Virus record (IMG/VR): IMGVR_UViG_3300021960_000017
Length of the DNA stretch: 64,000 nucleotides
Strand: one strand, 5' to 3'
From: a virus
Lineage: Duplodnaviria > Caudoviricetes
The notes under the pieces are model-generated. The model made no database searches, had not been told where the DNA came from, and saw nothing but the letters and a program-made list of their open reading frames with translations. This document shows, piece after piece, positions 16,252 to 64,000 of the stretch (position 1 is the first letter of the stretch; each line of letters begins with the position of its first letter). The translations under genes were made by a program, and so were the position numbers.

Positions 16252-17823
16252 GTGGCTGTAGTACAAATTTCCAGAATACAACACCGCAGTGGTGTCTATG
16301 AAAACTTACCTCAACTCGCAAGAGGTGAGATAGGTTTGGCTGTGGACACACGTCAGGTTTATATTGGCAACGGTGGCAGTGATGCTCCAACTACAGAAAA
16401 TTTAGAAATCCTAACAAGTCGTAGTGATGTTCTAGCACTTGCTGATACCTATACATACAGTGATGTTCAAATTGGATTTAGTGCCCAAACAGGTGTTAGT
16501 GCACTTACTCCTATTACTAGAACACTACAAAATAAACTTGATGACTTTGCGAATGTAAGAGATTTTGGTGCAGTAGGTGACGGCGCAACAGATGATACTG
16601 CGGCTATTAACCGTGCACTTTATGAACTTTTCTCTAGAGAAACAGAAAAAAGAATACGCAGAGCACTGTATTTCCCAGGTGGTGATTATCTAGTAAGCAA
16701 CGAAATTAAAATCCCAACTTATGCCAAACTAGTTGGCGAAGGACCTGACAGTACAATTATTCGTAGCAATGACTCAACAGGGCCAGTAGCACAGTTTGCA
16801 GATAGTTTACAGCAAATTGATGCAAGTGTAGGATCAAGTAGTGCTACACGTCCAAGTTTTATTACTGTAGAAGGTATTACCTTTAAAGCAGACAATGATA
16901 TTGATGTTTTTAAAGTAGATCAAGCAAGTAATGTTCATTTTATAAATTGTGTATTTCAAGCTAACAAAACCACTGCACCTATTACAGTGGGCAATCAAAA
17001 GGCCTGTGTTAGACTTACAAGCAGTGCAAGTTATCAAACAGAGTTTGTAACATTTAGAAACTGTACACTACAAGGGCAAAGTTTTATTGTGATAGCAGAT
17101 GACGATATGAAGAATGTATTGTTTGATGGTTGTAAAATGGTTACAGCCTTCAAAGGTATGAAGATTGGCGAAACAATAACAGGCAGTGCTCCAAGTATTA
17201 TTGGTCCTAAAAGCATGAAGGTTATCAACACTCTTTTTGATGACATCTACAACAATGCTATTCACATTTACAGCACTATTAGAGGATTTGTTAGTAGCAA
17301 TAACATCTTTAAGGATTGTGGCAACAATGGACTTGGCAGCGGCAACCCTAATCATGATGTAATACTTTTTGCAGGCCAAGGCTGTTACAGTTTTGGTGAT
17401 AGTTTTGACAGACCAGACGTTGATGTAACTAGCACAACTAGAAAAATAGATCATGGTGCTAGAAACATCGCTACCGAAGACGATACCCTACAGGTAGGTT
17501 CACATATTAGACGCACTCAAGCCAACATAACACTTGCTAATAATACTACAGCAAGCACTGGTGTAACATTTGCTGACAATGGTGACTATTATGCAATTGA
17601 AATAGACTATTACATAAGCAGAAACAGCAAGTTTAGACAGGGCAAACTTACTATTACACATGATAGTTCAGCACAAGTACTTGATGATGATTTTAACGAA
17701 AATAATGGTGATGTAGGCGTAACATTTGCTTTATCCAATGCTGCTAATGTAACAACATTAAATTATACAACTGATAACCAAACAACAGGTACAGTGTACC
17801 TCACTACAAGAATAATAAGATAA
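16252..17823 (+). CDS. tail fibre/spike with pectate-lyase-like beta-helix
   Basis: N-terminal LPQLARGEIGLAVDTRQVYIGNG module; NVRDFGAVGDGATDDTAAINRAL. Confidence 0.8.
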   Translation: MAVVQISRIQHRSGVYENLPQLARGEIGLAVDTRQVYIGNGGSDAPTTENLEILTSRSDVLALADTYTYSDVQIGFSAQTGVSALTPITRTLQNKLDDFANVRDFGAVGDGATDDTAAINRALYELFSRETEKRIRRALYFPGGDYLVSNEIKIPTYAKLVGEGPDSTIIRSNDSTGPVAQFADSLQQIDASVGSSSATRPSFITVEGITFKADNDIDVFKVDQASNVHFINCVFQANKTTAPITVGNQKACVRLTSSASYQTEFVTFRNCTLQGQSFIVIADDDMKNVLFDGCKMVTAFKGMKIGETITGSAPSIIGPKSMKVINTLFDDIYNNAIHIYSTIRGFVSSNNIFKDCGNNGLGSGNPNHDVILFAGQGCYSFGDSFDRPDVDVTSTTRKIDHGARNIATEDDTLQVGSHIRRTQANITLANNTTASTGVTFADNGDYYAIEIDYYISRNSKFRQGKLTITHDSSAQVLDDDFNENNGDVGVTFALSNAANVTTLNYTTDNQTTGTVYLTTRIIR

Positions 17824-17829
17824 TAATAT

Positions 17830-18300
17830 ATGTGGTATGCAGATCCCCAGTCTAGGATTCTAGACTGGTTTAAATTTCGCCAATCCCTGGACATTATGTC
17901 TGAATATGAGGCAGTTTGTGCTACTAATAAATTGTATCACACTGCTCCTATTAGTAATAGATACTATCATTTTGATTTTCCTGAGGAATGGCCTGATCCC
18001 TGGGAATTAATTGTGGAAAATCATTACGATGATATTGCAAGAGCACTAGGAATGTTATATACTTTAAGATATAGTAGGCATGAGTTGTCCGGTGAGCTTA
18101 GATGCTACTCAGACAAAAACCACAGTAAGGAATATAATTTAGCATGGTTGTGCGAAGGAAAATATGTACTTAATTACGATCTCGGAGTTGTCGTAAATAC
18201 TAACATCGAACTTAAAGAATTAAATTTAAAAGCAAGAGTAACTCTAGAGGAACTAGTAGGAAATGAGTCAAATTCAAGTAACAAAAAGGAATGGTCGTAA
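17830..18300 (+). CDS. hypothetical protein
   Basis: 156 aa ORF. Confidence 0.55.
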   Translation: MWYADPQSRILDWFKFRQSLDIMSEYEAVCATNKLYHTAPISNRYYHFDFPEEWPDPWELIVENHYDDIARALGMLYTLRYSRHELSGELRCYSDKNHSKEYNLAWLCEGKYVLNYDLGVVVNTNIELKELNLKARVTLEELVGNESNSSNKKEWS

Positions 18301-20551
18301 AGAACCTTTAGACCTAGAAAAGTTACACAAAGTTGTATTTTATGCATGTAACGGTATTACAGGCGTTAGTGCAAGTGAAGTAGAAATCCGCAGTCATTTA
18401 CAATTTTTTGATGGTATTGAAACCAGCACTATACAAGAAACACTTATAAAGAGTACAGCAGATCTAATCAGTGAAGAAACTCCGGGATATCAGTATGTTG
18501 CTGGCAGACTTATTAACTATCACCTACGCAAAATGGTTTATGGGCAGTTTGAACCATGGCCACTATATAAACTCGTAAAGCGCAATGTAGAGACTGGTTT
18601 TTACGATCCAGCATTACTTGAAGATTATACTGAAGACGAGTGGAACGAATTAAACAATTATATTAAGCACGACAGAGATGAAAATTCAACTTATGCTGGC
18701 ATGGAACAGTGGCGCGGCAAATATCTAGTAAAGAATCGTGTAACTAACGAAATATTTGAAACACCGCAAATGGCTTATATGTGTATTGCTGCTACCCTTT
18801 TTAGCAAGTATACAGAAAATCGTTTGCGTTGGGTAAAAGATTATTATGACGCTATATCTACTTTTTATATTAGCCTACCTACTCCTGTTATGGCTGGTGT
18901 ACGAACACCGCAAAGACAGTTTAGTAGTTGCGTGCTTATTGAAACTGACGACAGCCTTGATAGTATTAACGCCACTGCTAGTAGCATTGTAAAATATGTT
19001 AGCCAGAAGGCTGGCATTGGCATTGGTGCCGGCAATATTCGTGCTATCGGCAGTCCAATCCGCCGCGGCGATGCTTATCACACAGGTGTTATTCCTTTTT
19101 ATAAACTATTCCAGAGTGCTACTCGTAGTTGTAGCCAGGGCGGTGTACGCAACGGTGCTGCTACCCTATACTATCCTATCTGGCATTTGGAAGTTGAAGA
19201 CCTACTAGTACTTAAAAACAACAAAGGCACAGAAGACAATCGTGTACGCCATATGGATTACGGTGTGCAGTTTAATAAACTAATGTACGAGCGTTTAATC
19301 ACTGGCGGCAACATTACACTGTTCAGCCCAAGTGATGTGCCCGGCTTATACGATGCATTCTTTGCAGACCAGGATAGGTTCAAGGAGCTCTATGAAACTG
19401 CAGAACGCAATACCCGTTTGCGTAAAAAGACTGTAAGGGCTGCTGACCTATTCTCAGCGTTCATGGAGGAACGCAAAAACACTGGACGCATTTATCTAAT
19501 GAATGTGGACCATGCTAATGACCACGGCAGTTTTAAAGCAGATGTTGCACCTATTAAACAGAGCAACCTTTGCTGTGAAATTGACCTACCTACCAAGCCG
19601 CTGTCAGACTTCAATGATCCAGAAGGGGAAATTGCACTATGTACACTTAGCGCAATTAACTGGGGACTTATTAGGGATCCTAAAGATTTTGAGAAGCCTT
19701 GCACTCTAGCAGTGCGCGGATTGGATGCACTATTAACATATCAAAACTATCCTGTCAAGGCAGCGGAACGTGCTACTATGCTACGTCGCCCATTGGGTAT
19801 TGGTATTATCAATCTAGCATACTGGCTAGCACGTAATGATACAAACTACACTAATCCTAACCTAGAGCTAGTAGACGAATATGCAGAAGCATGGAGTTAC
19901 TATCTTATTAAGGCTAGTGCTGATCTTGCTGTTGAGCAGGGTGCATGTCCTGGAACTAACGAAACAAAATATGGTGATGGTATTACGCCTAACCAAACAT
20001 ACAAATCAGACCTGGACGAACTTGTAGCACACACTGAGCGCATGGACTGGACTGGGTTGCGTAAGCAACTAGCAGAAACAGGCATTCGCAACAGCACACT
20101 AATGGCACTTATGCCAGCAGAAACAAGTGCACAAATCTCCAACAGCACTAACGGTATTGAGCCTCCTCGTGCCTATGTAAGCGTAAAGCAAAGCAAGGAC
20201 GGTGTGCTAAAGCAAGTAGTGCCAGGTTATCCGCGTTTAAAGAATAAATACGAACTACTATGGGATCAGGAGTCACCTGAAGGTTATCTAAAGATTATGG
20301 CTGTACTACAAAAGTACATTGACCAGGGTATTAGTGTTAATACCAGTTACAATCCTACCTTCTTTGATGACGAAAAGATTCCAATGAGTACTATGTTAAA
20401 GCACCTTATCATGTGTTATAAGTATGGTCTCAAGCAGTTGTATTACTTCAACACCTACGATGGTGCAGGTGACGATGTAGCGGAAAAGGAACAAATCAGC
20501 ATTGAACTATCTGAAATAGACGATGCAGATTGTGAAAGTTGTGTAATTTAG
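18263..20551 (+). CDS. nrdA: ribonucleotide reductase class Ia alpha subunit
   Basis: ATP cone VTKRNG, QFSSCVLIE, SNLCCEI, MPAETS, KQLYY, C-terminal CESCVI. Confidence 0.97.
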   Translation: MSQIQVTKRNGRKEPLDLEKLHKVVFYACNGITGVSASEVEIRSHLQFFDGIETSTIQETLIKSTADLISEETPGYQYVAGRLINYHLRKMVYGQFEPWPLYKLVKRNVETGFYDPALLEDYTEDEWNELNNYIKHDRDENSTYAGMEQWRGKYLVKNRVTNEIFETPQMAYMCIAATLFSKYTENRLRWVKDYYDAISTFYISLPTPVMAGVRTPQRQFSSCVLIETDDSLDSINATASSIVKYVSQKAGIGIGAGNIRAIGSPIRRGDAYHTGVIPFYKLFQSATRSCSQGGVRNGAATLYYPIWHLEVEDLLVLKNNKGTEDNRVRHMDYGVQFNKLMYERLITGGNITLFSPSDVPGLYDAFFADQDRFKELYETAERNTRLRKKTVRAADLFSAFMEERKNTGRIYLMNVDHANDHGSFKADVAPIKQSNLCCEIDLPTKPLSDFNDPEGEIALCTLSAINWGLIRDPKDFEKPCTLAVRGLDALLTYQNYPVKAAERATMLRRPLGIGIINLAYWLARNDTNYTNPNLELVDEYAEAWSYYLIKASADLAVEQGACPGTNETKYGDGITPNQTYKSDLDELVAHTERMDWTGLRKQLAETGIRNSTLMALMPAETSAQISNSTNGIEPPRAYVSVKQSKDGVLKQVVPGYPRLKNKYELLWDQESPEGYLKIMAVLQKYIDQGISVNTSYNPTFFDDEKIPMSTMLKHLIMCYKYGLKQLYYFNTYDGAGDDVAEKEQISIELSEIDDADCESCVI

Positions 20552-20560
20552 GGGAAGAAA

Positions 20561-21733
20561 ATGGCAGTATTGGACACAGACAACAGAGACCACAAAAACA
20601 GAAAAAGTTTTTTAGACGGCAATGTGGGCGTACAACGCTATGACGATGTAAAGTATCGTGCGTTTGACAAACTTACTGACAAGCAACTTGGTTTCTTCTG
20701 GCGTCCTGAAGAGGTAGATATTTTGCGTGATGCAAAAGACTTTAAAGAACTTACTGATCACGAAAAGCATATCTTTACTAGTAACCTAAAGCGTCAAATC
20801 CTACTAGACAGTGTGCAAGGACGCTCACCTAACCTTGCGTTTCTTCCACTAGTAAGTTTACCAGAACTAGAAACATGGATTGAAACCTGGGCATTTAGTG
20901 AAACTATTCACAGTCGCAGTTACACACATATTATTCGTAATGTGTATGCTGATCCGAGCAAGGTGTTTGACGAGATGTTAGACATCCAAGAGATTGTAGA
21001 TTGTGCAGACGATATTACACGGCACTATGATGATTTAGTTCGTATGGCTGGCTGGTACAATTTACTGGGCGTTGGTAAGCATCTTGTTGTCAGCGGCAAA
21101 GAACACGATACTTCCAAAGTAAACGGTAACTTCAGCAACGTTGCAACAGAGATCAATGTTGATTTGTATGAACTAAAAAAGAAGTTATGGCTTACACTAA
21201 TGAGTGTAAACATTCTAGAAGGTGTTCGCTTTTATGTAAGTTTTGCTTGCTCGTGGGCATTTGCAGAACTTAAGAAGATGGAAGGCAACGCCAAGATTAT
21301 TAAGTTTATCGCTCGCGACGAAAATGTGCATTTGGGTAGTACACAACAATTATTAAAACTATTGCCCAAAGAAGATCAAGACTTTGCAAAGATTGCTGAT
21401 GAAACATTGGAAGAATGTGTACAAATGTTTGTAAGTGCAGTTGAGCAGGAAAAGCGTTGGGCAGAATACTTGTTTAAAGACGGCAGCATGATTGGCTTGA
21501 ATGCACAACTACTAAGTCAGTATATTGAATGGATTGCTAACAAGCGTATGATTGCCATTGGTATCAAGAGTCCATTTAATGTTCCACAGGCTAGCCCACT
21601 TCCCTGGACACAGAAGTGGATCAGTGGCGGCGAAGTACAAGTAGCACCACAGGAAACAGAAATTAGCAGTTATATTATTGGTGGAACTAAACAGGATGTT
21701 GAAGAGAACACCTTTAGTGGTCTTAGTTTATAA
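20561..21733 (+). CDS. nrdB: ribonucleotide reductase class Ia beta subunit
   Basis: FFWRPEE, ETIHSRSY, LEGVRFYVSF, IARDENVH, APQETEISSY. Confidence 0.97.
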   Translation: MAVLDTDNRDHKNRKSFLDGNVGVQRYDDVKYRAFDKLTDKQLGFFWRPEEVDILRDAKDFKELTDHEKHIFTSNLKRQILLDSVQGRSPNLAFLPLVSLPELETWIETWAFSETIHSRSYTHIIRNVYADPSKVFDEMLDIQEIVDCADDITRHYDDLVRMAGWYNLLGVGKHLVVSGKEHDTSKVNGNFSNVATEINVDLYELKKKLWLTLMSVNILEGVRFYVSFACSWAFAELKKMEGNAKIIKFIARDENVHLGSTQQLLKLLPKEDQDFAKIADETLEECVQMFVSAVEQEKRWAEYLFKDGSMIGLNAQLLSQYIEWIANKRMIAIGIKSPFNVPQASPLPWTQKWISGGEVQVAPQETEISSYIIGGTKQDVEENTFSGLSL

Positions 21734-21802: not shown

Positions 21803-22255
21803 ATGCATGAAATAGAAGACTGGATATTAAACTTTTTGAGTAAACCCAATAGTGCTTTTGCAGGGATGCCTCCTTGTCCTTATGCAAAACGAGCATGGTT
21901 AGATGATAAGGTTATAGTGCATAAAATTTATCCATGGAATATAGAAGACGCTCTGCGTTGGACCTTAACTTACTTTCCACCTGACAAAGATGTAGTTCTG
22001 TTTTGTATGGATCCAAAACTCATTTCTGCAGAGCATCTTGAAAAACTTGCAATAAGTACTGATGACTATATTATTTTAGACGACCATCCTGCTAATCCTG
22101 AAGTTGTAGATGGAGTCTTGCTTAATCAAGGAACATATGCTATACTATTTGTACAGCGTAGGAAAGAATTAGAAAAGGCACGTCAAGAACTTTCCCAAAC
22201 AAATTATTATAAAAATTTTACAGAAGAGTATAAAAACGACGTAGTAAATAGATGA
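21803..22255 (+). CDS. DUF1415-like protein
   Basis: WILNF...PPCPYAKRA resembles the DUF1415 CPFA motif. Confidence 0.45.
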   Translation: MHEIEDWILNFLSKPNSAFAGMPPCPYAKRAWLDDKVIVHKIYPWNIEDALRWTLTYFPPDKDVVLFCMDPKLISAEHLEKLAISTDDYIILDDHPANPEVVDGVLLNQGTYAILFVQRRKELEKARQELSQTNYYKNFTEEYKNDVVNR

Positions 22256-22686
22256 CATTATATGCATATATTGATTTAACAGAAACAAACTATACTCCAC
22301 AACTTGAATATGAAATACTACCAAAGGACACAGATCCTGTTCCATTGTTAGAAATATACAAACAGTATTGTAAGCATAAAGAGTTTGAGAGTGCGTGGCC
22401 TATGTTTGCAGAAGAATTTGCAGCACCTCATAATGACATAATTGCATATAGAGTTAAAGATAAGATTGTAGCGTGGAGTTTGATATACAAGATTGCAAAA
22501 GACACTGTATGGAATATGCAATTTGCTTGGGACTACAAACAACCCAAATTAAAACTAGGCTATAAAAGTATAAGAACAGAGTGTGCCATTTATAGGGAAC
22601 TTGGATATAAAACTATGATGATAGATGATGACGTTCCTTATAAAGCAGAGTTACAAGGCTTTAAAATTTTTGGACCTATAAAATGA
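22252..22686 (+). CDS. aminoacyl-tRNA protein transferase C-terminal domain-like (ATE/Bpt-type GNAT fold)
   Basis: AYRVKDKIVAWS...FAWDYKQPKLKLGYKSIRTECAIYRELGYK resembles ATE_C. Confidence 0.55.
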   Translation: MTLYAYIDLTETNYTPQLEYEILPKDTDPVPLLEIYKQYCKHKEFESAWPMFAEEFAAPHNDIIAYRVKDKIVAWSLIYKIAKDTVWNMQFAWDYKQPKLKLGYKSIRTECAIYRELGYKTMMIDDDVPYKAELQGFKIFGPIK

Positions 22687-23003
22687 ACGTATATACAATA
22701 TACGCAGATCTTACAGAAGGTGCAAATGTAGACGACTTTTTGTCTAGCATCAAAGAGTTCTTTGGAACTCTGGACACACTTGTTGCCTATCGTATCACAC
22801 GAATGAAACTGGGATTTCGCAGCAAAGATATAGGCGAGTGGCGTATAGATATGGAATTCAAAACCATGCAAGACCTAGATGATGCTATGGAACGTGTTTT
22901 ACACAATAGGAAGACAGTGGACAGTCATATACATTTTACACAGTATATAGATGCTGACAGTCTAGATCATTTTTTATACAGGGACTTTCCAGATGAAGTA
23001 TAA
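22683..23003 (+). CDS. DUF6614-like dimeric alpha/beta barrel protein
   Basis: YTIYADL...YRITRMKLGFR...EWRIDMEF..MQDLDDA. Confidence 0.5.
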   Translation: MNVYTIYADLTEGANVDDFLSSIKEFFGTLDTLVAYRITRMKLGFRSKDIGEWRIDMEFKTMQDLDDAMERVLHNRKTVDSHIHFTQYIDADSLDHFLYRDFPDEV

Positions 23004-24198
23004 CATCTGGAACAAATGGGACCCGCTTAAGGTTGTAATGTTAGGCGACAACTGGGGTCCTGAATTTTTCCAAGGTATTAAAGATGATAGGATTCGTAGT
23101 CCATTACAGCAAATAGCAGAGGAAACTCTAGAAGAACTAGCATATTTTGAAAGTGTACTTAAAGACTTTGGCTGTACTGTTCTTAGACCTGTAATAGACA
23201 GAAACGATCGTATCGAGAATTATGTAAGTGAAAACGGAAAAATAAACGGTGGTGTTCCGCGTACCGCATTACAACCAAGAGATAGTCAAATAGTAAGTGG
23301 AAATGTTTTATATAGTGAATTTACTGACAATCCAGGAATAGTACAAGGATTAAAACAATACGGCGAAGTTAACCCTTTTTTAGACCAGCAGGATATTCAA
23401 CTTATTCTTCATAATAATCCTATGGATCAAGATCAATTTGATCGACGTGCTGGCGCCGATTACCCTACATATGAATATTATTTAGAAAATAGAAAAGACA
23501 AAAATAAATTTTTAGATTATGTTTGGGAAGAACTTAATAGTTTTGTTGATTTAGAAGGGATGCCTACTAGTGCAAACTCTTTTTTAATTGGTAAAGACAT
23601 ATATGTAGATTTTAAGTGCCCGCTACCCTATAGAATCTTAGAGAAGATTTTTCCAGATATCCGCATAAATGTTTTATCGCATGGCCATACCCACGCTGAT
23701 GCTTGTTTTCATCCTATTAAACCAGGAGCAATTTTAAGCATTACAGATTTCCAAAACTATGAAGAAACATTTTTTAATTGGGATGTTTGTTATTTAAAGG
23801 GTGAGAGTTGGGATAAAGTTAAGGGGTTTATAAAGTTAAAGAAAGAAAATCTTGGAGCATGGTGGGTTCCTGGTGCTGAAGATAATCCACAGTTTTCTAA
23901 CTTTGTTAATAGTTGGCTAGATGAATGGGTTGGATATGTTGAAGAATCAGTATTTGATGTTAATGTATTAGTGTTAGATGAACATCATGTTTGCGTTAAC
24001 AACATGGAAAATCCGCAACTATTAGAGTTTTTAAAAAAACATAAAATGGAGCCTATTCACATTCCCTGGAAGCATAGATATTTCTGGGACGGTGGATTAC
24101 ACTGTATTACTTTAGATTTATACAGAGAAGGTGTACAGCAAGACTATTTCCCTGATCGTAAACAACCAATAGTCCAAAAGGAATTAGTAAATTGTTAA
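22993..24198 (+). CDS. amidinotransferase family protein 1
   Basis: WNKWDPLKVV, QPRD, HADACF, DVNVLV, GGLHCITL. Confidence 0.85.
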   Translation: MKYNIWNKWDPLKVVMLGDNWGPEFFQGIKDDRIRSPLQQIAEETLEELAYFESVLKDFGCTVLRPVIDRNDRIENYVSENGKINGGVPRTALQPRDSQIVSGNVLYSEFTDNPGIVQGLKQYGEVNPFLDQQDIQLILHNNPMDQDQFDRRAGADYPTYEYYLENRKDKNKFLDYVWEELNSFVDLEGMPTSANSFLIGKDIYVDFKCPLPYRILEKIFPDIRINVLSHGHTHADACFHPIKPGAILSITDFQNYEETFFNWDVCYLKGESWDKVKGFIKLKKENLGAWWVPGAEDNPQFSNFVNSWLDEWVGYVEESVFDVNVLVLDEHHVCVNNMENPQLLEFLKKHKMEPIHIPWKHRYFWDGGLHCITLDLYREGVQQDYFPDRKQPIVQKELVNC

Positions 24199-25358
24199 GA
24201 GAAAAGTATAACATATGGAACAAATGGGATCCGCTTAAAGTTTGTATGTTAGGCAACAATTATGCTCCAGAATTTTTTAACGGCCTTCCAGACAAAGCAG
24301 GCGATCCACTAAAGCGCATATGTGAAGAGACTCTTGAAGATCTTGCAGGATTTAAAAAAATACTACAAGACTTTGGAGTAGAAGTAATACAGCCAGAAAT
24401 GGATCCTAACGAACGCTTTATTGACAATCCTAGCCGGTATCCAAGAGGACCACTACAACCAAGAGATCGTCAAATTGTACTTGCAAACAAATGTTATATA
24501 AGCGGCAATGATCATCCTTCAATTAAAACATGTCTGGAAAATTATGGTGAAGTAACAGATATAAGAGATGTAGATATTCACGTTCCTTATTATATGACTA
24601 GAGAAAGATATGACTTTATTCGTGGAGATGATTACCCAAGTTATGAAGACTTTTTAGAACATAGAAAAAATAAAGATTTTTTTAAAGATTTTGTATGGGA
24701 GGAACTTTTAGAAGTTAAAATAGACCTATCTCTTGACAGTGCTAGTAGTTTTCCTCTTGGTGATAATTTTACTATAGGCATAGGATTTGAGAAAAATATA
24801 TTTTTTTCTCACATTATACAAGAAATGAAATATTATTACACAGTTTTAGATCATTTTCATTGTAAATTAGTGCCTGTAATTGGTCATTCAGATTCAAATT
24901 TCCATCCTATTAAGCCAGGTGCAATATTAAGTTTGCATGATGTCCAAAATTATGAGAAAAATTTTCCTGGCTGGGATGTTTGCTATTTGCCAGAACAGGG
25001 TTGGAGTAAAGTTGAATCTTTTTTAAAACTTAAAAGATTAAACAAGGGCAAATGGTGGGTAGCAGGCGAAGAGGATAATGATGAGTTTACACATTTTGTA
25101 GAAACATGGTTGCAGGATTGGGTTGGATATGTAGAAGAAACAGTGTTTGACGTAAATGTTCTAATGCTAGACGAAAATCATTGTTGTGTTTCTAACCCCA
25201 ATAACGAGCAAGTAAACGCATTTTTTAAAAAACATAAAATCGAACCTGTGCATATTCCTTGGCGACATAGATGGTTTTGGGATGGCGGGTTACATTGTAT
25301 TACATTAGAGTTATACAGAGAAGGTAAACAACAAAATTATTTCAAAGGAGTTTGTTAG
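24192..25358 (+). CDS. amidinotransferase family protein 2 (paralog)
   Basis: WNKWDPLKVC, QPRD, HSDSNF, DVNVLM, GGLHCITL. Confidence 0.85.
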   Translation: MLREKYNIWNKWDPLKVCMLGNNYAPEFFNGLPDKAGDPLKRICEETLEDLAGFKKILQDFGVEVIQPEMDPNERFIDNPSRYPRGPLQPRDRQIVLANKCYISGNDHPSIKTCLENYGEVTDIRDVDIHVPYYMTRERYDFIRGDDYPSYEDFLEHRKNKDFFKDFVWEELLEVKIDLSLDSASSFPLGDNFTIGIGFEKNIFFSHIIQEMKYYYTVLDHFHCKLVPVIGHSDSNFHPIKPGAILSLHDVQNYEKNFPGWDVCYLPEQGWSKVESFLKLKRLNKGKWWVAGEEDNDEFTHFVETWLQDWVGYVEETVFDVNVLMLDENHCCVSNPNNEQVNAFFKKHKIEPVHIPWRHRWFWDGGLHCITLELYREGKQQNYFKGVC

Positions 25359-25631
25359 TTGTTAACACTATACACAAAAAATTTATGCCCTTATTGCGAT
25401 ATGGCTAAAACATATCTACTTGCTTATGAAATTCCCTTTACAGAAGTAAACATTGAAGAAGATACTGAAGCACGAGAGTTTGTATTAAGCAAAGGCCATC
25501 GCACAGTGCCACAGATATACCGAGACGGAGAATTATTTGTTGAGGGCGGCGCTGAAGGCTTGATTAAAGTAGGTCATGAAACTATCAAAGAGCGTTTAGG
25601 TGATTTAAATCTAGGCGGCCTAAGTCTCTGA
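25359..25631 (+). CDS. glutaredoxin
   Basis: CPYC active site, TVPQI, GG; TTG start. Confidence 0.92.
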   Translation: MLTLYTKNLCPYCDMAKTYLLAYEIPFTEVNIEEDTEAREFVLSKGHRTVPQIYRDGELFVEGGAEGLIKVGHETIKERLGDLNLGGLSL

Positions 25632-25668: not shown

Positions 25669-25953
25669 ATGGCAAGACCTGTAGTAAGAATCGGTGACAG
25701 AAATAGTGCTGGCGGCGTAGCAGTTAGTCCAGTGCGTAATGTGCATGCTAATTTTAGACCTTTTGCAAGGTTTATGAGTAGTGTAACACCTCACCCCCCA
25801 TGTCCTAGAGTTCCAATCCACTGTGGCGCAAAAGCAGCATTGCCAGGCAGTAGAACAGTTCGTGCTGGTGGCAGACCTGTTGTTAGACGTGGAGATGTAG
25901 ACACTTGTGGACACCCTAGAGCATCAGGTTCTAGAAACGTCTTGTGTGGATAA
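25669..25953 (+). CDS. PAAR-like spike tip protein
   Basis: VVRIGD...VTPHPPC..H...GRPVVRRGDVDTCGH..ASGSRNV. Confidence 0.85.
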   Translation: MARPVVRIGDRNSAGGVAVSPVRNVHANFRPFARFMSSVTPHPPCPRVPIHCGAKAALPGSRTVRAGGRPVVRRGDVDTCGHPRASGSRNVLCG

Positions 25954-25956
25954 TTA

Positions 25957-27858
25957 ATGGCAACTATTAAAGCAACTATCACTAGTCTTGGTCTTAATGC
26001 ACTGGGTGGTGCAGTAAATGGTCAGGGTTTAAATAACCTAGGTAAAATTTTAAGTCAGCCTATGTCTAACCTTGGTGGATTTGGCGGTCAGATGGATGCC
26101 CAGGCTAAAATTGCAAATATAATTAAAACAGATTACGATACTCCAGCATTATTAAATGCTGGTGGTTTTAATCCATTAGTTTACCTTAGCAATGCATTAA
26201 CTGGTGTAGCAGATGAAGTAGGCAGCGCAACTAGTGATGGTCGTGGTGCTATTTCCGGATCACTAGGATCAGGTTTTCAAGCTCTAGATGGATCAGGTAT
26301 AGTAGATGCAATTAGTATACACACAGAGTACCTTAAAGGAAGTTATGGTGCTAATAGTATTATGCAGTGTTTTGTTGGTGTAGAAGCATTTTGCTTTATC
26401 AGTAAAGAAATGTACCAAACACTCGAAGGCGGTCTAGCAGCTCGTTTTGGTAGCGCATTTGCTGCGTTAAACAGTAGTTTACCAGCAAGTGAAACATTAT
26501 CAGCAGTAGATAGTACATTTTTAGCAAATAATAGTAACAGTGAAGTAGAGGAAATATTAGGTGGCGAATATGCCTTTACCAATTTTCTTGGTGTTAATAT
26601 AAACAACATCACAGACGCAATAACAAATGGTTTTAGTAATTTTATTACTGGTAATGTAAAAACAACTTTAGCACAACTTGCAGTTGATTTTACCAACCTT
26701 GGTAATGCGTATGATCTTACAGACATAGACAACTTTGGAAATCCCGGACAGATAGTAGACAGATTAATTAGTGTGGGTGCTGGTGATATTACGGGTGTAA
26801 TAGATGCTATGCAGGATATTGGTGGAAATCAATTACTTGCAAATGTTGGTAATTTATCCAGTAGCCAGTTTAACAGTCAATTAACAGATGCATTAAGTTT
26901 AATTACCAACTCTGAGATGATTGCAATAGCGCAACAAGCATTAGGTAGTAATGTTCCTAATTTGACTAGTTTGGCTGACTTAACTGATATAAGGAAAGTA
27001 TTACCAACGAGTTTTGATAATATTAGTCCTAATACTTTTACTCAACTAGTTGTTGAACTTAAAAATTTAAATATTGGAAATTTACAAACACCGCAACAAC
27101 TTGGTACATTACTCGGACGATTCGATTTTCCTGTAAGTTTGCCTACAATAGAAAATTCAACAGTATTAATTGACAATGACGCCGCTGCAAATATTAGAAC
27201 TAAGTTTTTAAATAAAAACTTTAAAGACATGAAAGTAAGTGATGCAATAGGGTCACTTGCGGGTGTTGGTATAAGAAACCCAATTACTAGGTTTACTAAT
27301 GCTATGACAGAAATGGCTAACGCTGGTGCATTTACTGCATTAAATGCTTTATATACTCGTCTTAATGCAGGGTTAAATGGAGATTATAATACAGGCGCTG
27401 TATATGGTGTAGATACTATTGATGATCCGGTAACCAGTATAAGTTATAATGACATGGATGCGTTTGTTAATGCTACACTTTCCCTTATTGGCGCAGAGAT
27501 AACCAGCATTGCGAGCACGGCTGCTTACAGTGATGCTTTTAATAGAGCCCGTGATGCAATTACAGAAATACAGCAAAAAATTTACGATGAAAGCATTACA
27601 TATATTCCTATGATGGATTTGCATTTAAATGATAGAAATAATGATCCTGTAAATGTATATGGTTTTGCGACAAGCATGGAGTCAAGAGTAGAAGACCCTG
27701 ATGCTTTAGATGTACTAAAAGGATTAGCAGAGGCGGCTAAATTACAGAATGATAAGTTTGGTAGCTATTGGGACGCATTTATAAGCGAAACCGTTAATAG
27801 AAACGCTGTTCAAACGCATTCAATAGACTGGATTGCAGAAGATAAAATAGAAATTTAA
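25957..27858 (+). CDS. putative tail/baseplate protein
   Basis: 633 aa A/G/N/S-rich, follows PAAR. Confidence 0.5.
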   Translation: MATIKATITSLGLNALGGAVNGQGLNNLGKILSQPMSNLGGFGGQMDAQAKIANIIKTDYDTPALLNAGGFNPLVYLSNALTGVADEVGSATSDGRGAISGSLGSGFQALDGSGIVDAISIHTEYLKGSYGANSIMQCFVGVEAFCFISKEMYQTLEGGLAARFGSAFAALNSSLPASETLSAVDSTFLANNSNSEVEEILGGEYAFTNFLGVNINNITDAITNGFSNFITGNVKTTLAQLAVDFTNLGNAYDLTDIDNFGNPGQIVDRLISVGAGDITGVIDAMQDIGGNQLLANVGNLSSSQFNSQLTDALSLITNSEMIAIAQQALGSNVPNLTSLADLTDIRKVLPTSFDNISPNTFTQLVVELKNLNIGNLQTPQQLGTLLGRFDFPVSLPTIENSTVLIDNDAAANIRTKFLNKNFKDMKVSDAIGSLAGVGIRNPITRFTNAMTEMANAGAFTALNALYTRLNAGLNGDYNTGAVYGVDTIDDPVTSISYNDMDAFVNATLSLIGAEITSIASTAAYSDAFNRARDAITEIQQKIYDESITYIPMMDLHLNDRNNDPVNVYGFATSMESRVEDPDALDVLKGLAEAAKLQNDKFGSYWDAFISETVNRNAVQTHSIDWIAEDKIEI

Positions 27859-33307: not shown

Positions 33308-33382
33308 TCCAGGATAGCTCAACGGCAGAGCCATCGGCTGTTAACCGATAGGTTGTAGGTTCGAATCCTACTCCTGGAGCCA
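33308..33382 (+). tRNA. tRNA-Asn(GTT)
   Basis: Full cloverleaf, anticodon loop CTGTTAA, GGTTCGAATCC, encoded CCA. Confidence 0.97.
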
Positions 33383-41432: not shown

Positions 41433-41464
41433 GTGCGGGGAGAGCAATCTCCCCGCATACTTTC
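41433..41464 (+). terminator. hairpin/terminator
   Basis: GTGCGGGGAGA-GCAA-TCTCCCCGCAT. Confidence 0.7.
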
Positions 41465-41474
41465 GGAGTTTTAT

Positions 41475-41780
41475 ATGTCTGAAAAAACAAACACAAAAAT
41501 TAAGGTTCGTCCTATAATTGAAAAGGAACCGCCTAAAGATTACAAGGTTATTTTTGTAAATGATCAAGTAACTACATTTGAGTTTGTTTGCGATAGTCTA
41601 GTGACTGTTTTTGATTATGATGAGTCAAAAGCACAAAAGAAAACACAAGAAATCCATGCCCAGGGTGCAGGCGTAGTTGCTGTACTTCCTTTTGAAATTG
41701 CAGAACAAAAAGGTGTGGAAGTTTTAGTACAAGCCCGTAATCAGGGCTATCCCTTAGAAGTTAAATTAGAACAAGAATAA
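41475..41780 (+). CDS. clpS: ATP-dependent Clp protease adaptor ClpS
   Basis: PPKDYKVIFVNDQVTTFEFV, EIHAQGAGVV, EIAEQK, YPLEVKLE; ATG at 41475 with GGAG RBS. Confidence 0.9.
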   Translation: MSEKTNTKIKVRPIIEKEPPKDYKVIFVNDQVTTFEFVCDSLVTVFDYDESKAQKKTQEIHAQGAGVVAVLPFEIAEQKGVEVLVQARNQGYPLEVKLEQE

Positions 41781-41816: not shown

Positions 41817-42887
41817 ATGAGAATAGAACATGATTTAAAACTGGATTATTCTGGCGTGCTGCTGCGACCCAAGCGTAGTACATTGGATAGTCGCAAGAAT
41901 GTAGGGCTCAGCAGAGAGTATACATTTATTAACAGTCATCAAAGTTACAAAGGCATTCCCGTAATTGCTGCTAACATGGATGGCGTTGGTACCTGGGACA
42001 TGCATGACGTCCTGGGTAAACAAGGTATGCTCACTGCTATTGTTAAGCACTACAATATTGCAAGTCAGGTAGAAAAATTTAATAAACCAGGTAGCGAATT
42101 TGCTGTATATAGTATGGGCATTACAGATGATGACCTTGCTAAGTTTAGGGCAGTGAATGTAGGTGCACCAGTAAAATGGGTGTGTATAGATGTTGCTAAC
42201 GGTTACAGCGAGCGTTTTATAGACTTTGTAGCAAGGTTTAGAGATGAGTTCCCTGATAAAATTATCATGGCTGGTAATGTAGTTACTGGCGATATAACAG
42301 AGGAGTTAATACTAAAAGGTGCGGACATTGTTAAAGTTGGTATTGGTCCCGGTAGTGTATGTACTACTCGTATCCAAACTGGTGTTGGTTATCCTCAATT
42401 GTCTGCTGTTATTGAATGCTCAGACGCCGCTCATGGGCTGGGTGGTCATATTATTGCTGACGGTGGGTGCACTTGTCCTGGCGACGTTGCTAAGGCGTTT
42501 GCTGGTGGCGCTGACTTTGTAATGCTTGGCGGCATGCTTGCTGGGCACGACGAAGGTGGCGGTGATGTAATTAGTAAAATGTATATTACTGATGAAGTTG
42601 ACAGTGATGGCAATCGTGTCCTAGAAGAGCGTCAGTTTGTTGAGTTTTATGGTATGAGTTCTCAAGCAGCAAACGACAAGCACAATGGTGGACTTAAAGA
42701 ATATCGCAGTAGTGAAGGCAGAGAAGTTCTTATACCCTACAAGGGTGCAGTAGAAGATACGCTGCGAGACTTGCTAGGCGGTGTAAGAAGTGCCTGCACA
42801 TATGTTGGCGCAAGACGATTGAAAGATTTAACTAAGTGTGCTACATTTGTAAAATGTACTGACACACATAATAGGATTTATGAATGA
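41817..42887 (+). CDS. guaC: GMP reductase
   Basis: [60 protein letters not shown]. Confidence 0.95.
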
Positions 42888-59506: not shown

Positions 59507-59582
59507 GATTCCGTAGCTCAGAGGATAGAGCATCCGCCTTCTAAGCGGATGGTCGCAGGTTCGAATCCTGCCGGGATCGCCA
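59507..59582 (+). tRNA. tRNA-Arg(TCT)
   Basis: GATTCCG/CGGGATC acceptor stem, TCCGC/GCGGA anticodon stem, loop CTTCTAA, encoded CCA. Confidence 0.97.
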
Positions 59583-59596
59583 TTTGGAGTAACTCG

Positions 59597-59974
59597 ATGA
59601 CGATGCATCTTGTAGGTCCTTATTTGACCACAACCAACTTCAGGCCTCGCAAGGCCAAGAACAAAAGCAAGGCACAACTTGCTACAGATGCAGCTCATGC
59701 AAAGTTTCTCAAGAAGATGGGTTATAAGGGGAATGGTGTCAGTGGTAGCACAGTAGTCTCCAAAACTAACAGCGAGGGTTCGATTCCTTCTTCCTCTGCC
59801 ATCCCTAGCATAGGTGATGGTGTCGGTTATAATCCAGGTATGTCTCGGCGTAAAGAAAATGTCTATAGTGGCGAGCGCAAACTGTTAGGCGTTGCCACTA
59901 TGCATAAATCCAATATGGTGCCAGTATTTTCCAGTGAAGATGCTGAAGCAATATCCAAGATGAGACGTGGATGA
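59597..59974 (+). CDS. conserved phage protein containing a nested tRNA
   Basis: GGAG RBS, MTMHLVGP start; C-terminus LLGVATMHKSNMVPVF..EDAEAISKMRRG. Confidence 0.75.
   Translation: MTMHLVGPYLTTTNFRPRKAKNKSKAQLATDAAHAKFLKKMGYKGNGVSGSTVVSKTNSEGSIPSSSAIPSIGDGVGYNPGMSRRKENVYSGERKLLGVATMHKSNMVPVFSSEDAEAISKMRRG
59727..59801 (+). tRNA. tRNA-Trp(CCA), nested in frame in the CDS
   Basis: AGGGGAA/TTCCTCT acceptor, GTGT/GCAC D-stem, loop CTCCAAA, GAGGG-TTCGATT-CCTTC T-arm, G73 and CCA. Confidence 0.85.
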
Positions 59975-63304: not shown

Positions 63305-64000
63305 GTGAAAATATCTTCCAGTAATGAATGGGACCAGTTACGGTCTATAATTGTAGGCACTGCCAATTATGCAAATTGGCCAGTACATTGTCCTGACTTC
63401 AGGAAACAAGAACAAACAACTCTATGGACTGAAACTCCATTGCCAGCTGGGCCTGTACCAGATTATATTATACAGGAAGCTAACCAGGATCTCGATTATT
63501 TAGTTAGCTTTTTAGAGGGCTGCGGAATAACGGTATACAGGCCTACTGATATCAACTTCCAGGAAACAGACGGATTTTATAACTATTGTCCTAGAGATAG
63601 ACTGCTGATACTTGATAATGATATCATAGATTGTCCAATGGCCTATGGTTGCAGGGATCAGGAATATGCTGCATATGACTTTTTACCACAGGATTGGGTA
63701 CCAGCATTAGGGCACTGGGATGCTGCAAATGTTTGTAGACTTAATGATGATTTACTCTATCTTAAAAGTGAAAGCGGAGACCTGGCAGGCTATAGGTGGT
63801 TGTCAGATTACTATGCAGACAAGCGAGTACATCTAGTAGAGTGTTATAGTGGTGTTCATATTGACAGCACTATTGTTCCAGTAAGAGAAGGCCTAGTAGT
63901 TTTAAATGCGGCCCGAATAACAGAAGATACTGTACCAGCACCACTAAAAAACTGGGACAAGATATGGATTCATGAATGTGCACACCAACCTTTTATTAAC
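63305..64000 (+). CDS. amidinotransferase family protein 3, partial (not in ORF track; runs off the window)
   Basis: GTG start; SSNEWDQLRSIIVG, YNYCPRDRLLI, WDAANVCRL, YSGVHIDSTIVPVREGLV. Confidence 0.88.
   Translation, partial: MKISSSNEWDQLRSIIVGTANYANWPVHCPDFRKQEQTTLWTETPLPAGPVPDYIIQEANQDLDYLVSFLEGCGITVYRPTDINFQETDGFYNYCPRDRLLILDNDIIDCPMAYGCRDQEYAAYDFLPQDWVPALGHWDAANVCRLNDDLLYLKSESGDLAGYRWLSDYYADKRVHLVECYSGVHIDSTIVPVREGLVVLNAARITEDTVPAPLKNWDKIWIHECAHQPFIN

Follow-up and report, generated by a model that had tools for sequence, protein, structure and literature searches.

A run of small, closely packed genes lies between positions 21803 and 25631 of a 64,000 nucleotide (nt) stretch of viral DNA (IMG/VR record IMGVR_UViG_3300021960_000017; Duplodnaviria, Caudoviricetes), the whole of which is referred to here as the window. 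The first three genes, all on the plus strand, are G1 (21803–22255; 150 amino acids, aa), G2 (22252–22686; 144 aa), and G3 (22683–23003; 106 aa), with overlaps of 4 nt between G1 and G2 and again between G2 and G3, each of the form ATGA. G1 is a DUF1415/DUF6875(P422)/YqcI-like protein and a putative cysteine-ligated heme oxygenase, G2 is a minimal GNAT of the ATE_C type and a putative aminoacyl-tRNA-dependent transferase, and G3 is a DUF6614 protein that may be an accessory subunit or an enzyme. An earlier annotation made from the letters of the DNA (the sequence-only reading) had described three small coupled genes after nrdAB, and this is confirmed by the open reading frames and their overlaps. 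The trio it described is real, but it ended the module too early, as two amidinotransferase genes are also translationally coupled. These are G4a (22993–24198, plus strand; 401 aa; AGAT/StrB1/HsvA/SxtG family), which has an 11 nt overlap with the stop of G3, and its tandem paralog G4b (24192–25358, plus strand; 388 aa), which is 51% identical to G4a. The last gene of the coupled run encodes a glutaredoxin (25359–25631, plus strand; Pfam Glutaredoxin, 4.9e-17) and starts one base past the G4b stop, making six genes from G1 through glutaredoxin in a run that begins right after nrdA and nrdB.

Each of G1, G2, and G3 has hundreds to thousands of conserved homologs, and they are therefore real genes. 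The NCBIfam models gave no name to any of the window's five proteins. Scans for promoters and terminators found sites that are no more numerous than in shuffled sequence.

G2 is a genuine but minimal GNAT of the ATE_C/Bpt type. Pfam ATE_C is matched by 28 of the 33 aligned G2 relatives, with a best value of 2e-9, and matches to other GNAT families are sporadic (Acetyltransf_1 in one of the 33, at 0.007, and Acetyltransf_6 in two); LPG_synthase_C is matched by two family members at 0.03. There is no Pfam match to ATE_N in G2, nor in 10 longer relatives that are described below. The best sequence match of the G2 family profile in the PDB is the ATE1 of K. lactis (7wfx), in which the invariant residues of G2 (F91, W93, L102-G103, E110, G118, Y130-K131, and G136), together with the well-conserved D94, are identical and form the pattern FxWD..LG..E..G..YK..G. 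The suggestion in the sequence-only reading that the middle gene carries only the GNAT half of ATE1/Bpt is borne out by these matches. Indeed, the ends of G2 match those of the GNAT core exactly, and the region of its first residue is the first strand of the core. The GNAT core of ATE1 is its main tRNA-binding part, while the other domains bind the acceptor (PMC10115844). Because G2 is the core alone, it would appear, by analogy with ATE1, to have kept the donor side and lost the ATE1-type acceptor side.

The AlphaFold2 model of G2 has a GNAT fold (predicted local distance difference test score, pLDDT, 93.2). When this model was aligned to known structures with VIA-align, the six top entries were all aminoacyl-tRNA-dependent MprF/aminoacyl-phosphatidylglycerol (aa-PG) synthases, at Z 14.1–15.2 over approximately 135–140 residues and with a root-mean-square deviation (rmsd) of 2.5–3.1. 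Next are VipF, FemX, and N-myristoyltransferase (NMT), with Z 13.9, and then Sba18, with 12.7. Foldseek returned the same mix of aminoacyl-tRNA-dependent and acyl-CoA GNATs. The closest structures are thus aminoacyl-tRNA-dependent GNATs and not plain acetyltransferases, though by a small margin; a best match to an ordinary acetyl-CoA GNAT, which would have counted against the sequence-only reading, was not obtained. The loop that binds the pyrophosphate of CoA after strand beta4, Q/R-x-x-G-x-G/A, is degenerate in G2, where it reads P98-K-L-K-L-G103-Y-K-S and only the central Gly is conserved. From the homology and the folds, we infer that G2 uses tRNA.

A search of 1.84 billion representatives with the G2 profile returned 188 proteins, among which are "long forms" of 225–268 aa, with E values down to 4e-36. 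These have an additional N-terminal segment, ALEQGW..W.Q.R.TR, and a C-terminal tail, GFEWWTG.EWS.D, and nine of the 10 that were found with the G2 profile pass the ATE_C cut-off. One of them, P0134, matches seven NCBIfam models of bacterial arginyltransferase (Bpt) at 1e-16 to 1e-11, but with 61 bits against an equivalog cut-off of 252 bits, and another, P0084, scores 24 bits against the NCBIfam arginyltransferase (PRK01305) models. G2 itself has no match to the PRK01305 models. Such scores point to homology of the long forms with Bpt, not to equivalence, and it is by way of these forms that G2 is connected to Bpt. The search was run without length limits, and among its 188 matches there are no fused G1-G2 or G2-G3 proteins. 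One match of 963 aa is a tandem-repeat artefact, and odd forms of 183–255 aa look chimeric.

The linkage of the three genes was assessed in IMG/VR, where a pattern scan identified relatives of G2 on at least 561 contigs and long forms on at least 530. Eighty loci of each kind were kept (n = 160) and dereplicated at 70% identity to 50 lineages; since contigs end, all linkage counts are lower bounds. G1 is beside G2 in 75 of the 80 loci and G3 in 70, usually in the order G1-G2-G3. Beside the long form, G1 is present in 70 of the 80 loci and G3 in 48, which brings the loci with G3 beside either form to 118 of 160. By lineage, G1 is present within 3.5 kb in 40 of the 50 (80%), G3 in 31 (62%), and an amidinotransferase in 14 (28%), in at least 14 distinct architectures and in both orientations. 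In the long-form loci the order is G3<, long form>, G1<, the long form being encoded on the strand opposite to its partners. There are also lineages without G3 in which it shares a strand with G1 and overlaps it by 4 nt, which would make G1 and G2 the core pair. The marine relatives have the nrdAB context, and in most others the cassette is preceded by a T4 baseplate gene and followed by a SegE-type endonuclease, with further contexts also seen; as the surrounding genes differ between groups, the linkage is not due to shared synteny. Conservation of the gene neighbourhood, which had been put forward as a check in the sequence-only reading, is strong, and conservation of the trio is far above chance.

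It had also been proposed there that the neighbours of G2 might supply the missing half of the transferase. This was not upheld. The long forms have N- and C-terminal extensions of their own and yet keep the same partners, and therefore the neighbours do not replace the missing half. G1 and G3 were each rejected as a missing ATE_N half for this reason, and also because G1 has a different fold.

The module is present in at least about 1,100 IMG/VR contigs. In 50,697 isolated-phage records, tblastn with G2, with a long form, and with either of two G3 sequences gave no match, and a DNA search of isolated-phage records matched only nrdB. The full G1-G2-G3 cassette, with or without G4, is also seen in contigs of metagenome-assembled genomes labelled Legionellales, Weeksellaceae, Haliscomenobacter, and Legionella (L081–L085), which are probably mis-binned phage contigs or prophage-like pieces. 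In 14 of the 80 loci, from a freshwater-type group, B12-binding radical SAM proteins of approximately 500–530 aa are encoded a few kb from the trio (L012:3872–5410, L014, L033, L053, and others), and these genes may be in the same accessory island.

G1 has no match to any Pfam family at E ≤ 1 in the window, although phrog_10325 is matched at 4e-13. Among 35 G1 relatives there are Pfam matches, all weak, to DUF6875 (PF21780; 24 of 35, best 3e-5), DUF1415 (PF07209; five of 35, best 1e-4), and YqcI_YcgG (PF08892; one of 35, at 0.046). Of the family likenesses named in the sequence-only reading, DUF6614 for G3 (7e-15) stands, as does ATE_C for G2 at the level of the family, though the window protein is below the cut-off, while DUF1415 for G1 is found in these few relatives and not in the window protein. 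The ESM Atlas neighbours of G1 include DUF1415/DUF6875 clusters, and hhalign of G1 with two bacterial DUF1415 proteins gave a probability of 50% (E 1.6e-4, 134 columns), with PCPYA of G1 aligned with LCPFA. The G1 family is large, at 2,386 clusters at E ≤ 0.001. In the 35-sequence alignment the invariant residues are W7, C25-P26 within PCP[YF]A, A28, D94, N108, G110, and Q118; H95-P96, which with D94 gives D94-H95-P96, and E100 are nearly invariant. G1-like genes in cultured phages include those of S-RIM32 (65639–66052) and S-PM2 (26220–26639), and in some Synechococcus phages such a gene is beside a 2-oxoglutarate-Fe(II) prolyl-hydroxylase-like gene.

In the AlphaFold2 model of G1 (pLDDT 94.9), helices flank four main strands. 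Compared exhaustively with 48,161 chains, the model has only one match at Z ≥ 5, to AglA (9ub3; Z 6.2, 142 of 150 residues, rmsd 4.1), with the runner-up at 4.3, and Foldseek also places AglA first (probability 0.97, E 0.016). AglA belongs to the YqcI/YcgG enzymes and has a "sandwich" fold of four strands; the thiolate of Cys44 ligates its heme, and its reaction is the N-hydroxylation of the guanidine in an arginine conjugate (PMC12866846). In the structural alignment, residue 1 of the G1 model is paired with residue 24 of the AglA chain, in which the heme ligand is Cys44. DUF6875 has been renamed cytochrome P422, a family with Cys-ligated heme, the motif RxGxVCP, and the same sandwich, which hydroxylates tryptophan (bioRxiv 10.64898/2025.12.11.692455). 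The match to the structure of AglA and the profile matches to DUF6875/DUF1415 are two independent leads, and both point to the same enzyme class for G1. By analogy with these enzymes, G1 most likely binds heme through the invariant Cys25.

The match of G3 to Pfam DUF6614 (PF20319) has 55.5 bits against a 25-bit cut-off, and all 15 of the G3 relatives match this family, the best at 2.6e-24. Its invariant residues are R37, R40, K42, G44-F45-R46-S47, E52, H82, H96, R100-D101, and P103-D104, and the charged residues among these suggest an active or binding site. The G3 profile has no significant match in the PDB. Bacterial DUF6614 loci (L086–L099) are without G1, G2, and G4, and their neighbours are lineage-specific (DinB-like, esterase, gyrA) and uninformative on function. 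Literature searches turned up nothing on DUF6614 beyond one annotation, probably spurious, as the anti-Druantia protein "Druad1"; that protein is only 44 aa and its annotation a weak prediction, and this assignment was dropped.

For the amidinotransferases, the family profile matches L-arginine:glycine amidinotransferase (AGAT) in the PDB at 1.2e-32, HsvA at 8e-31, StrB1 at 5e-29, and SxtG at 1e-26. In 22 sequences that include G4a and G4b, which belong to phrog_25854, the invariant residues are R96-D97 (PRD), H234 and D236 (GHxD), and H370-C371-x-T373 with R378 (HCxT..R). The position of the amidinotransferase gene varies in other phages, where it may separate G1 from G2 or G2 from G3, or may follow G3. 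The window has three copies, the two in tandem, which have an insert, and a third, more canonical copy (63305–64000, plus strand), the 3' end of which runs off the window (hhalign against the amidinotransferase profile, probability 98.9, E 3e-17). Two to four dispersed copies are present in each of four other large viral records, three of which have the full trio and one G1 with the long form.

The best explanation for these observations, which is a tentative one, is that G1-G2-G3 is a phage pathway joining tRNA-dependent aminoacyl transfer to heme oxygenation, a coupling known from AglC and AglA of argolaphos biosynthesis. In that pathway, arginyl-tRNA synthetase, tRNA, and AglC together yield AMPn-Arg, which AglA then hydroxylates; the argolaphos cluster combines GNAT-type aminoacyl-tRNA ligases with a YqcI/YcgG gene (PMC8976061). 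As AglC/AglA is the best analogy, G2 and G1 are read as a transfer-plus-oxygenation pair acting on one molecule. G2 would transfer the aminoacyl group of a charged tRNA, of host or phage, to an amine acceptor, which would be a small amine or an amino-acid-derived metabolite rather than the Asp or Glu N-terminus of a protein; a small-molecule acceptor is the more likely because G2 has lost the N-terminal domain that forms the protein-substrate site of ATE1. G1, with heme on Cys25, would oxygenate the same amino-acid-derived molecule, either ahead of the transfer or following it; N-hydroxylation of a guanidine or an amine would be one such reaction. G3, which looks like an obligate accessory, may be a subunit that binds the substrate or a partner, or a further enzyme. 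The amidinotransferases would shift an amidino group from arginine to an amine, either feeding or finishing the same guanidino chemistry. It is from the homology, the folds, the catalytic motifs, and the gene linkage that we infer the heme binding and tRNA use, the arginine or guanidino theme, the order of the steps, and the product.

Several observations weigh against this explanation. G2 of the window is below the 25-bit cut-off of ATE_C (PF04377; E 0.001, 20.1 bits), the structural margin of aminoacyl-tRNA-dependent over acyl-CoA GNATs is just 1–2 Z units, and the G2 family is mildly acidic (median isoelectric point, pI, 5.9), unlike many tRNA-binding proteins. In the case of G1, the Z of 6.2 with AglA is middling by the tool's own calibration, and the sequence profiles of G1 and of DUF1415 have no significant match in the PDB, with neither AglA nor P422 being found. 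G1 is 60–100 residues shorter than the characterised family members, and the 35-sequence alignment shows no invariant Arg or Lys that might serve the heme propionates; a metal site or a catalytic triad made up of D94-H95 and the Cys is a possible alternative. Cultured cyanomyophages, HMO-2011, and Roseobacter phages have G1-like genes but neither G2 nor G3. In 72% of lineages there is no amidinotransferase in the neighbourhood, and one complete 180 kb genome that has only the long form and G1 has none at all.

If G2 acts on proteins, it may be the writer of a phage N-degron, adding a destabilising residue from aminoacyl-tRNA to protein N-termini, which a phage ClpS would then deliver to host ClpAP. 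The homology of G2 and the long form to Bpt/ATE1 would fit this, as would the ClpS gene in the window (41433–41780, plus strand; Pfam ClpS, 1.3e-22), an N-degron reader. In this proposal, oxidation by G1 and the enzymes of amidinotransferase fold would prepare "tertiary" N-terminal residues, as in the eukaryotic oxidation of Cys and deamidation of Asn and Gln. Of 15 large records with G2 or the long form, seven also encode ClpS, among them three of the four whose completeness is at least 86%, a co-occurrence that may reflect lineage only. The gene is never adjacent to the trio, being approximately 19 kb away in the window, and it is absent from one 100% complete genome in which the long form and G1 are present. 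The ATE_N region, which is the protein-substrate site of ATE1, is absent from G2, and the equivalog cut-offs of NCBIfam arginyltransferase are missed widely (61 against 252 bits). A role as N-degron writer is the main rival, though considered unlikely. Its fullest version is a self-contained viral cascade, in which G1 would oxidise or G4 convert the N-terminal residue, G2 with G3 as specificity subunit would add the amino acid, and ClpS would pass the product to ClpAP; that this is what the trio encodes is very improbable.

No tRNA would be needed if G2 were an ordinary acyl-CoA GNAT whose substrate is an amine or hydroxylamine produced by G1, which it would N-acylate; hydroxamate siderophores are made in this order, with N-hydroxylation first and N-acylation second. 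The GNAT fold is common to both types of enzyme, the acidic pI of G2 is in keeping with this, and VipF and NMT, both at Z 13.9, are within 1–2 Z of the top, with Foldseek E values of 9e-6 against 3.9e-6. There is also the one G2 relative that matches Acetyltransf_1 at 0.007. The sequence evidence points instead to ATE_C in 28 of 33 members, and to arginyltransferase in the long forms, and the pyrophosphate-binding motif for CoA has been lost from G2. In addition, the strong structural matches are all on the second lobe of tandem GNATs, and in NMT the second lobe is not the one that binds CoA. On balance, an acyl-CoA enzyme is quite unlikely. It has also been considered that the module modifies another macromolecule of phage or host, such as a DNA base, a tRNA, or a component of the cell envelope, for anti-defence or takeover, and that its location in variable islands reflects this. 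The accessory regions do differ in context, with nrdAB before the module in some and a T4 baseplate gene and a SegE-type endonuclease on either side of it in others, and the module is restricted to viruses, in that bacterial DUF6614 loci with G1 and G2 look like phage contigs and true bacterial loci are without them. Yet no conserved DNA-binding, glycosylase, or transglycosylase partner is beside the trio, and the sole literature link of DUF6614 to anti-defence is the 44 aa protein with the probably spurious annotation. Such a role is distinctly improbable.

The content of the window, with T4-type nrd genes, a tail-fibre-like protein, an exonuclease, tmRNA, and tRNAs, is that of a large uncultured marine phage. 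Upstream of the trio are nrdA (18263–20551) and nrdB (20561–21733), both on the plus strand, which encode a class Ia ribonucleotide reductase (Pfam). As nrdB adjoins the trio in only seven of 80 loci, nrdAB is context and not part of the module, and a role related to ribonucleotide reductase was dropped. The glutaredoxin gene is 3' of the cassette in nine of 80 loci, those of the marine nrdAB type only, and is probably part of the nrd context rather than of the module. Directly 3' of it is a PAAR-motif protein with a spike-tip type domain (25669–25953), which is kept after the cassette in marine relatives (eight of 80 loci). A 523 aa protein (16252–17823) has an Mtd_N domain, from the N-terminus of the major tropism determinant, and a pectate-lyase-like beta-helix, and is likely to be a receptor-binding tail fibre or a depolymerase. 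After the ClpS gene comes one for a member of the IMPDH/GMP-reductase family (41817–42887). There are tRNA genes for Asn (GTT; 33308–33382), Arg (TCT; 59507–59582), and Trp (CCA; 59727–59801); tRNA-Arg(TCT) was discarded as evidence, being too common among AT-rich phages.

Few enzymes use the amino acids of charged tRNAs outside translation, these being Aat, Bpt/ATE1, FemXAB, MprF, and some enzymes of natural-product synthesis. In the literature found, no virus-encoded enzyme with a non-translational use of charged tRNA has been characterised, and there is nothing on the function of DUF1415 or on arginyltransferase-like genes in phages. The enzyme families are known, and the novelty is in their constant combination, in the minimal form of ATE_C, and in the restriction to uncultured phages. 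With at least about 1,100 contigs and none of 50,697 isolates, this is a function that is common in uncultured phages from water and soil but has stayed out of experimental study. Three "dark" families (DUF1415-like, minimal ATE_C, and DUF6614) are joined in one unit, which provides the first functional context for DUF6614 and for the DUF1415-like proteins of phages. If the product is an oxygenated or guanidino amino-acid conjugate, this would be a viral, tRNA-dependent pathway resembling those of natural products. If it is proteins that are marked, it would be a viral N-degron system, and in the cascade form the first hierarchical N-degron pathway to be encoded by a virus.

Compared with known systems, G2 shares a homologous GNAT core with ATE1 and with Bpt, the aspartate/glutamate leucyltransferase covered by the NCBIfam "arginyltransferase" PRK01305, and the long forms align with Bpt over approximately 160 residues. 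Unlike these enzymes, G2 has neither ATE_N nor a Cys/Zn or Fe-S cluster and, at 144 aa against approximately 240, is cut at both ends; it is also virus-specific and is accompanied by G1 and usually by G3. Among solved structures, the nearest to G2 are the C-terminal domain of MprF/aa-PG synthases, FemX, and Sba18/Sbb17 (Z 12.2–15.2), which use aminoacyl-tRNA as acyl donor, several of them with acceptors that are not proteins. MprF, FemX, and Sba18/Sbb17 are tandem GNATs, whereas G2 is a single lobe, and there is no sequence similarity to them beyond the two LPG_synthase_C matches.

G1 resembles cytochrome P422 (DUF6875), YqcI/YcgG, and DUF1415 in the probable four-stranded sheet sandwich of its model, its invariant Cys-Pro near the N-terminus, and its weak but recurrent profile matches, and its conserved residues at the ends of beta3 and beta4 are in the place where substrate is bound in P422/YqcI/YcgG enzymes. 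It is shorter, however, and is without the Arg of RxGxVCP and the substrate-binding motifs that have been described for P422. G4a and G4b have clear homology to AGAT, StrB1, HsvA, and SxtG, including the Asp/His/Cys catalytic motifs, but are a phage clade with an insert, and are sub-threshold in Pfam at default settings. The best functional analogy remains AglC and AglA of Streptomyces monomycini, in which, as would be the case for G2 and G1, an aminoacyl-tRNA-dependent transferase of GNAT type and a small Cys-ligated heme oxygenase act on the same conjugate. The argolaphos cluster differs in that its candidate GNAT-type ligases are larger (AlpF is 342 aa and Acetyltransf_6/FemAB-like) and not ATE_C, and AglA has approximately 244–274 aa against the 150 aa of G1. 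The phosphonate genes are absent from the phage module, and DUF6614 and the amidinotransferase are absent from the argolaphos cluster as described.

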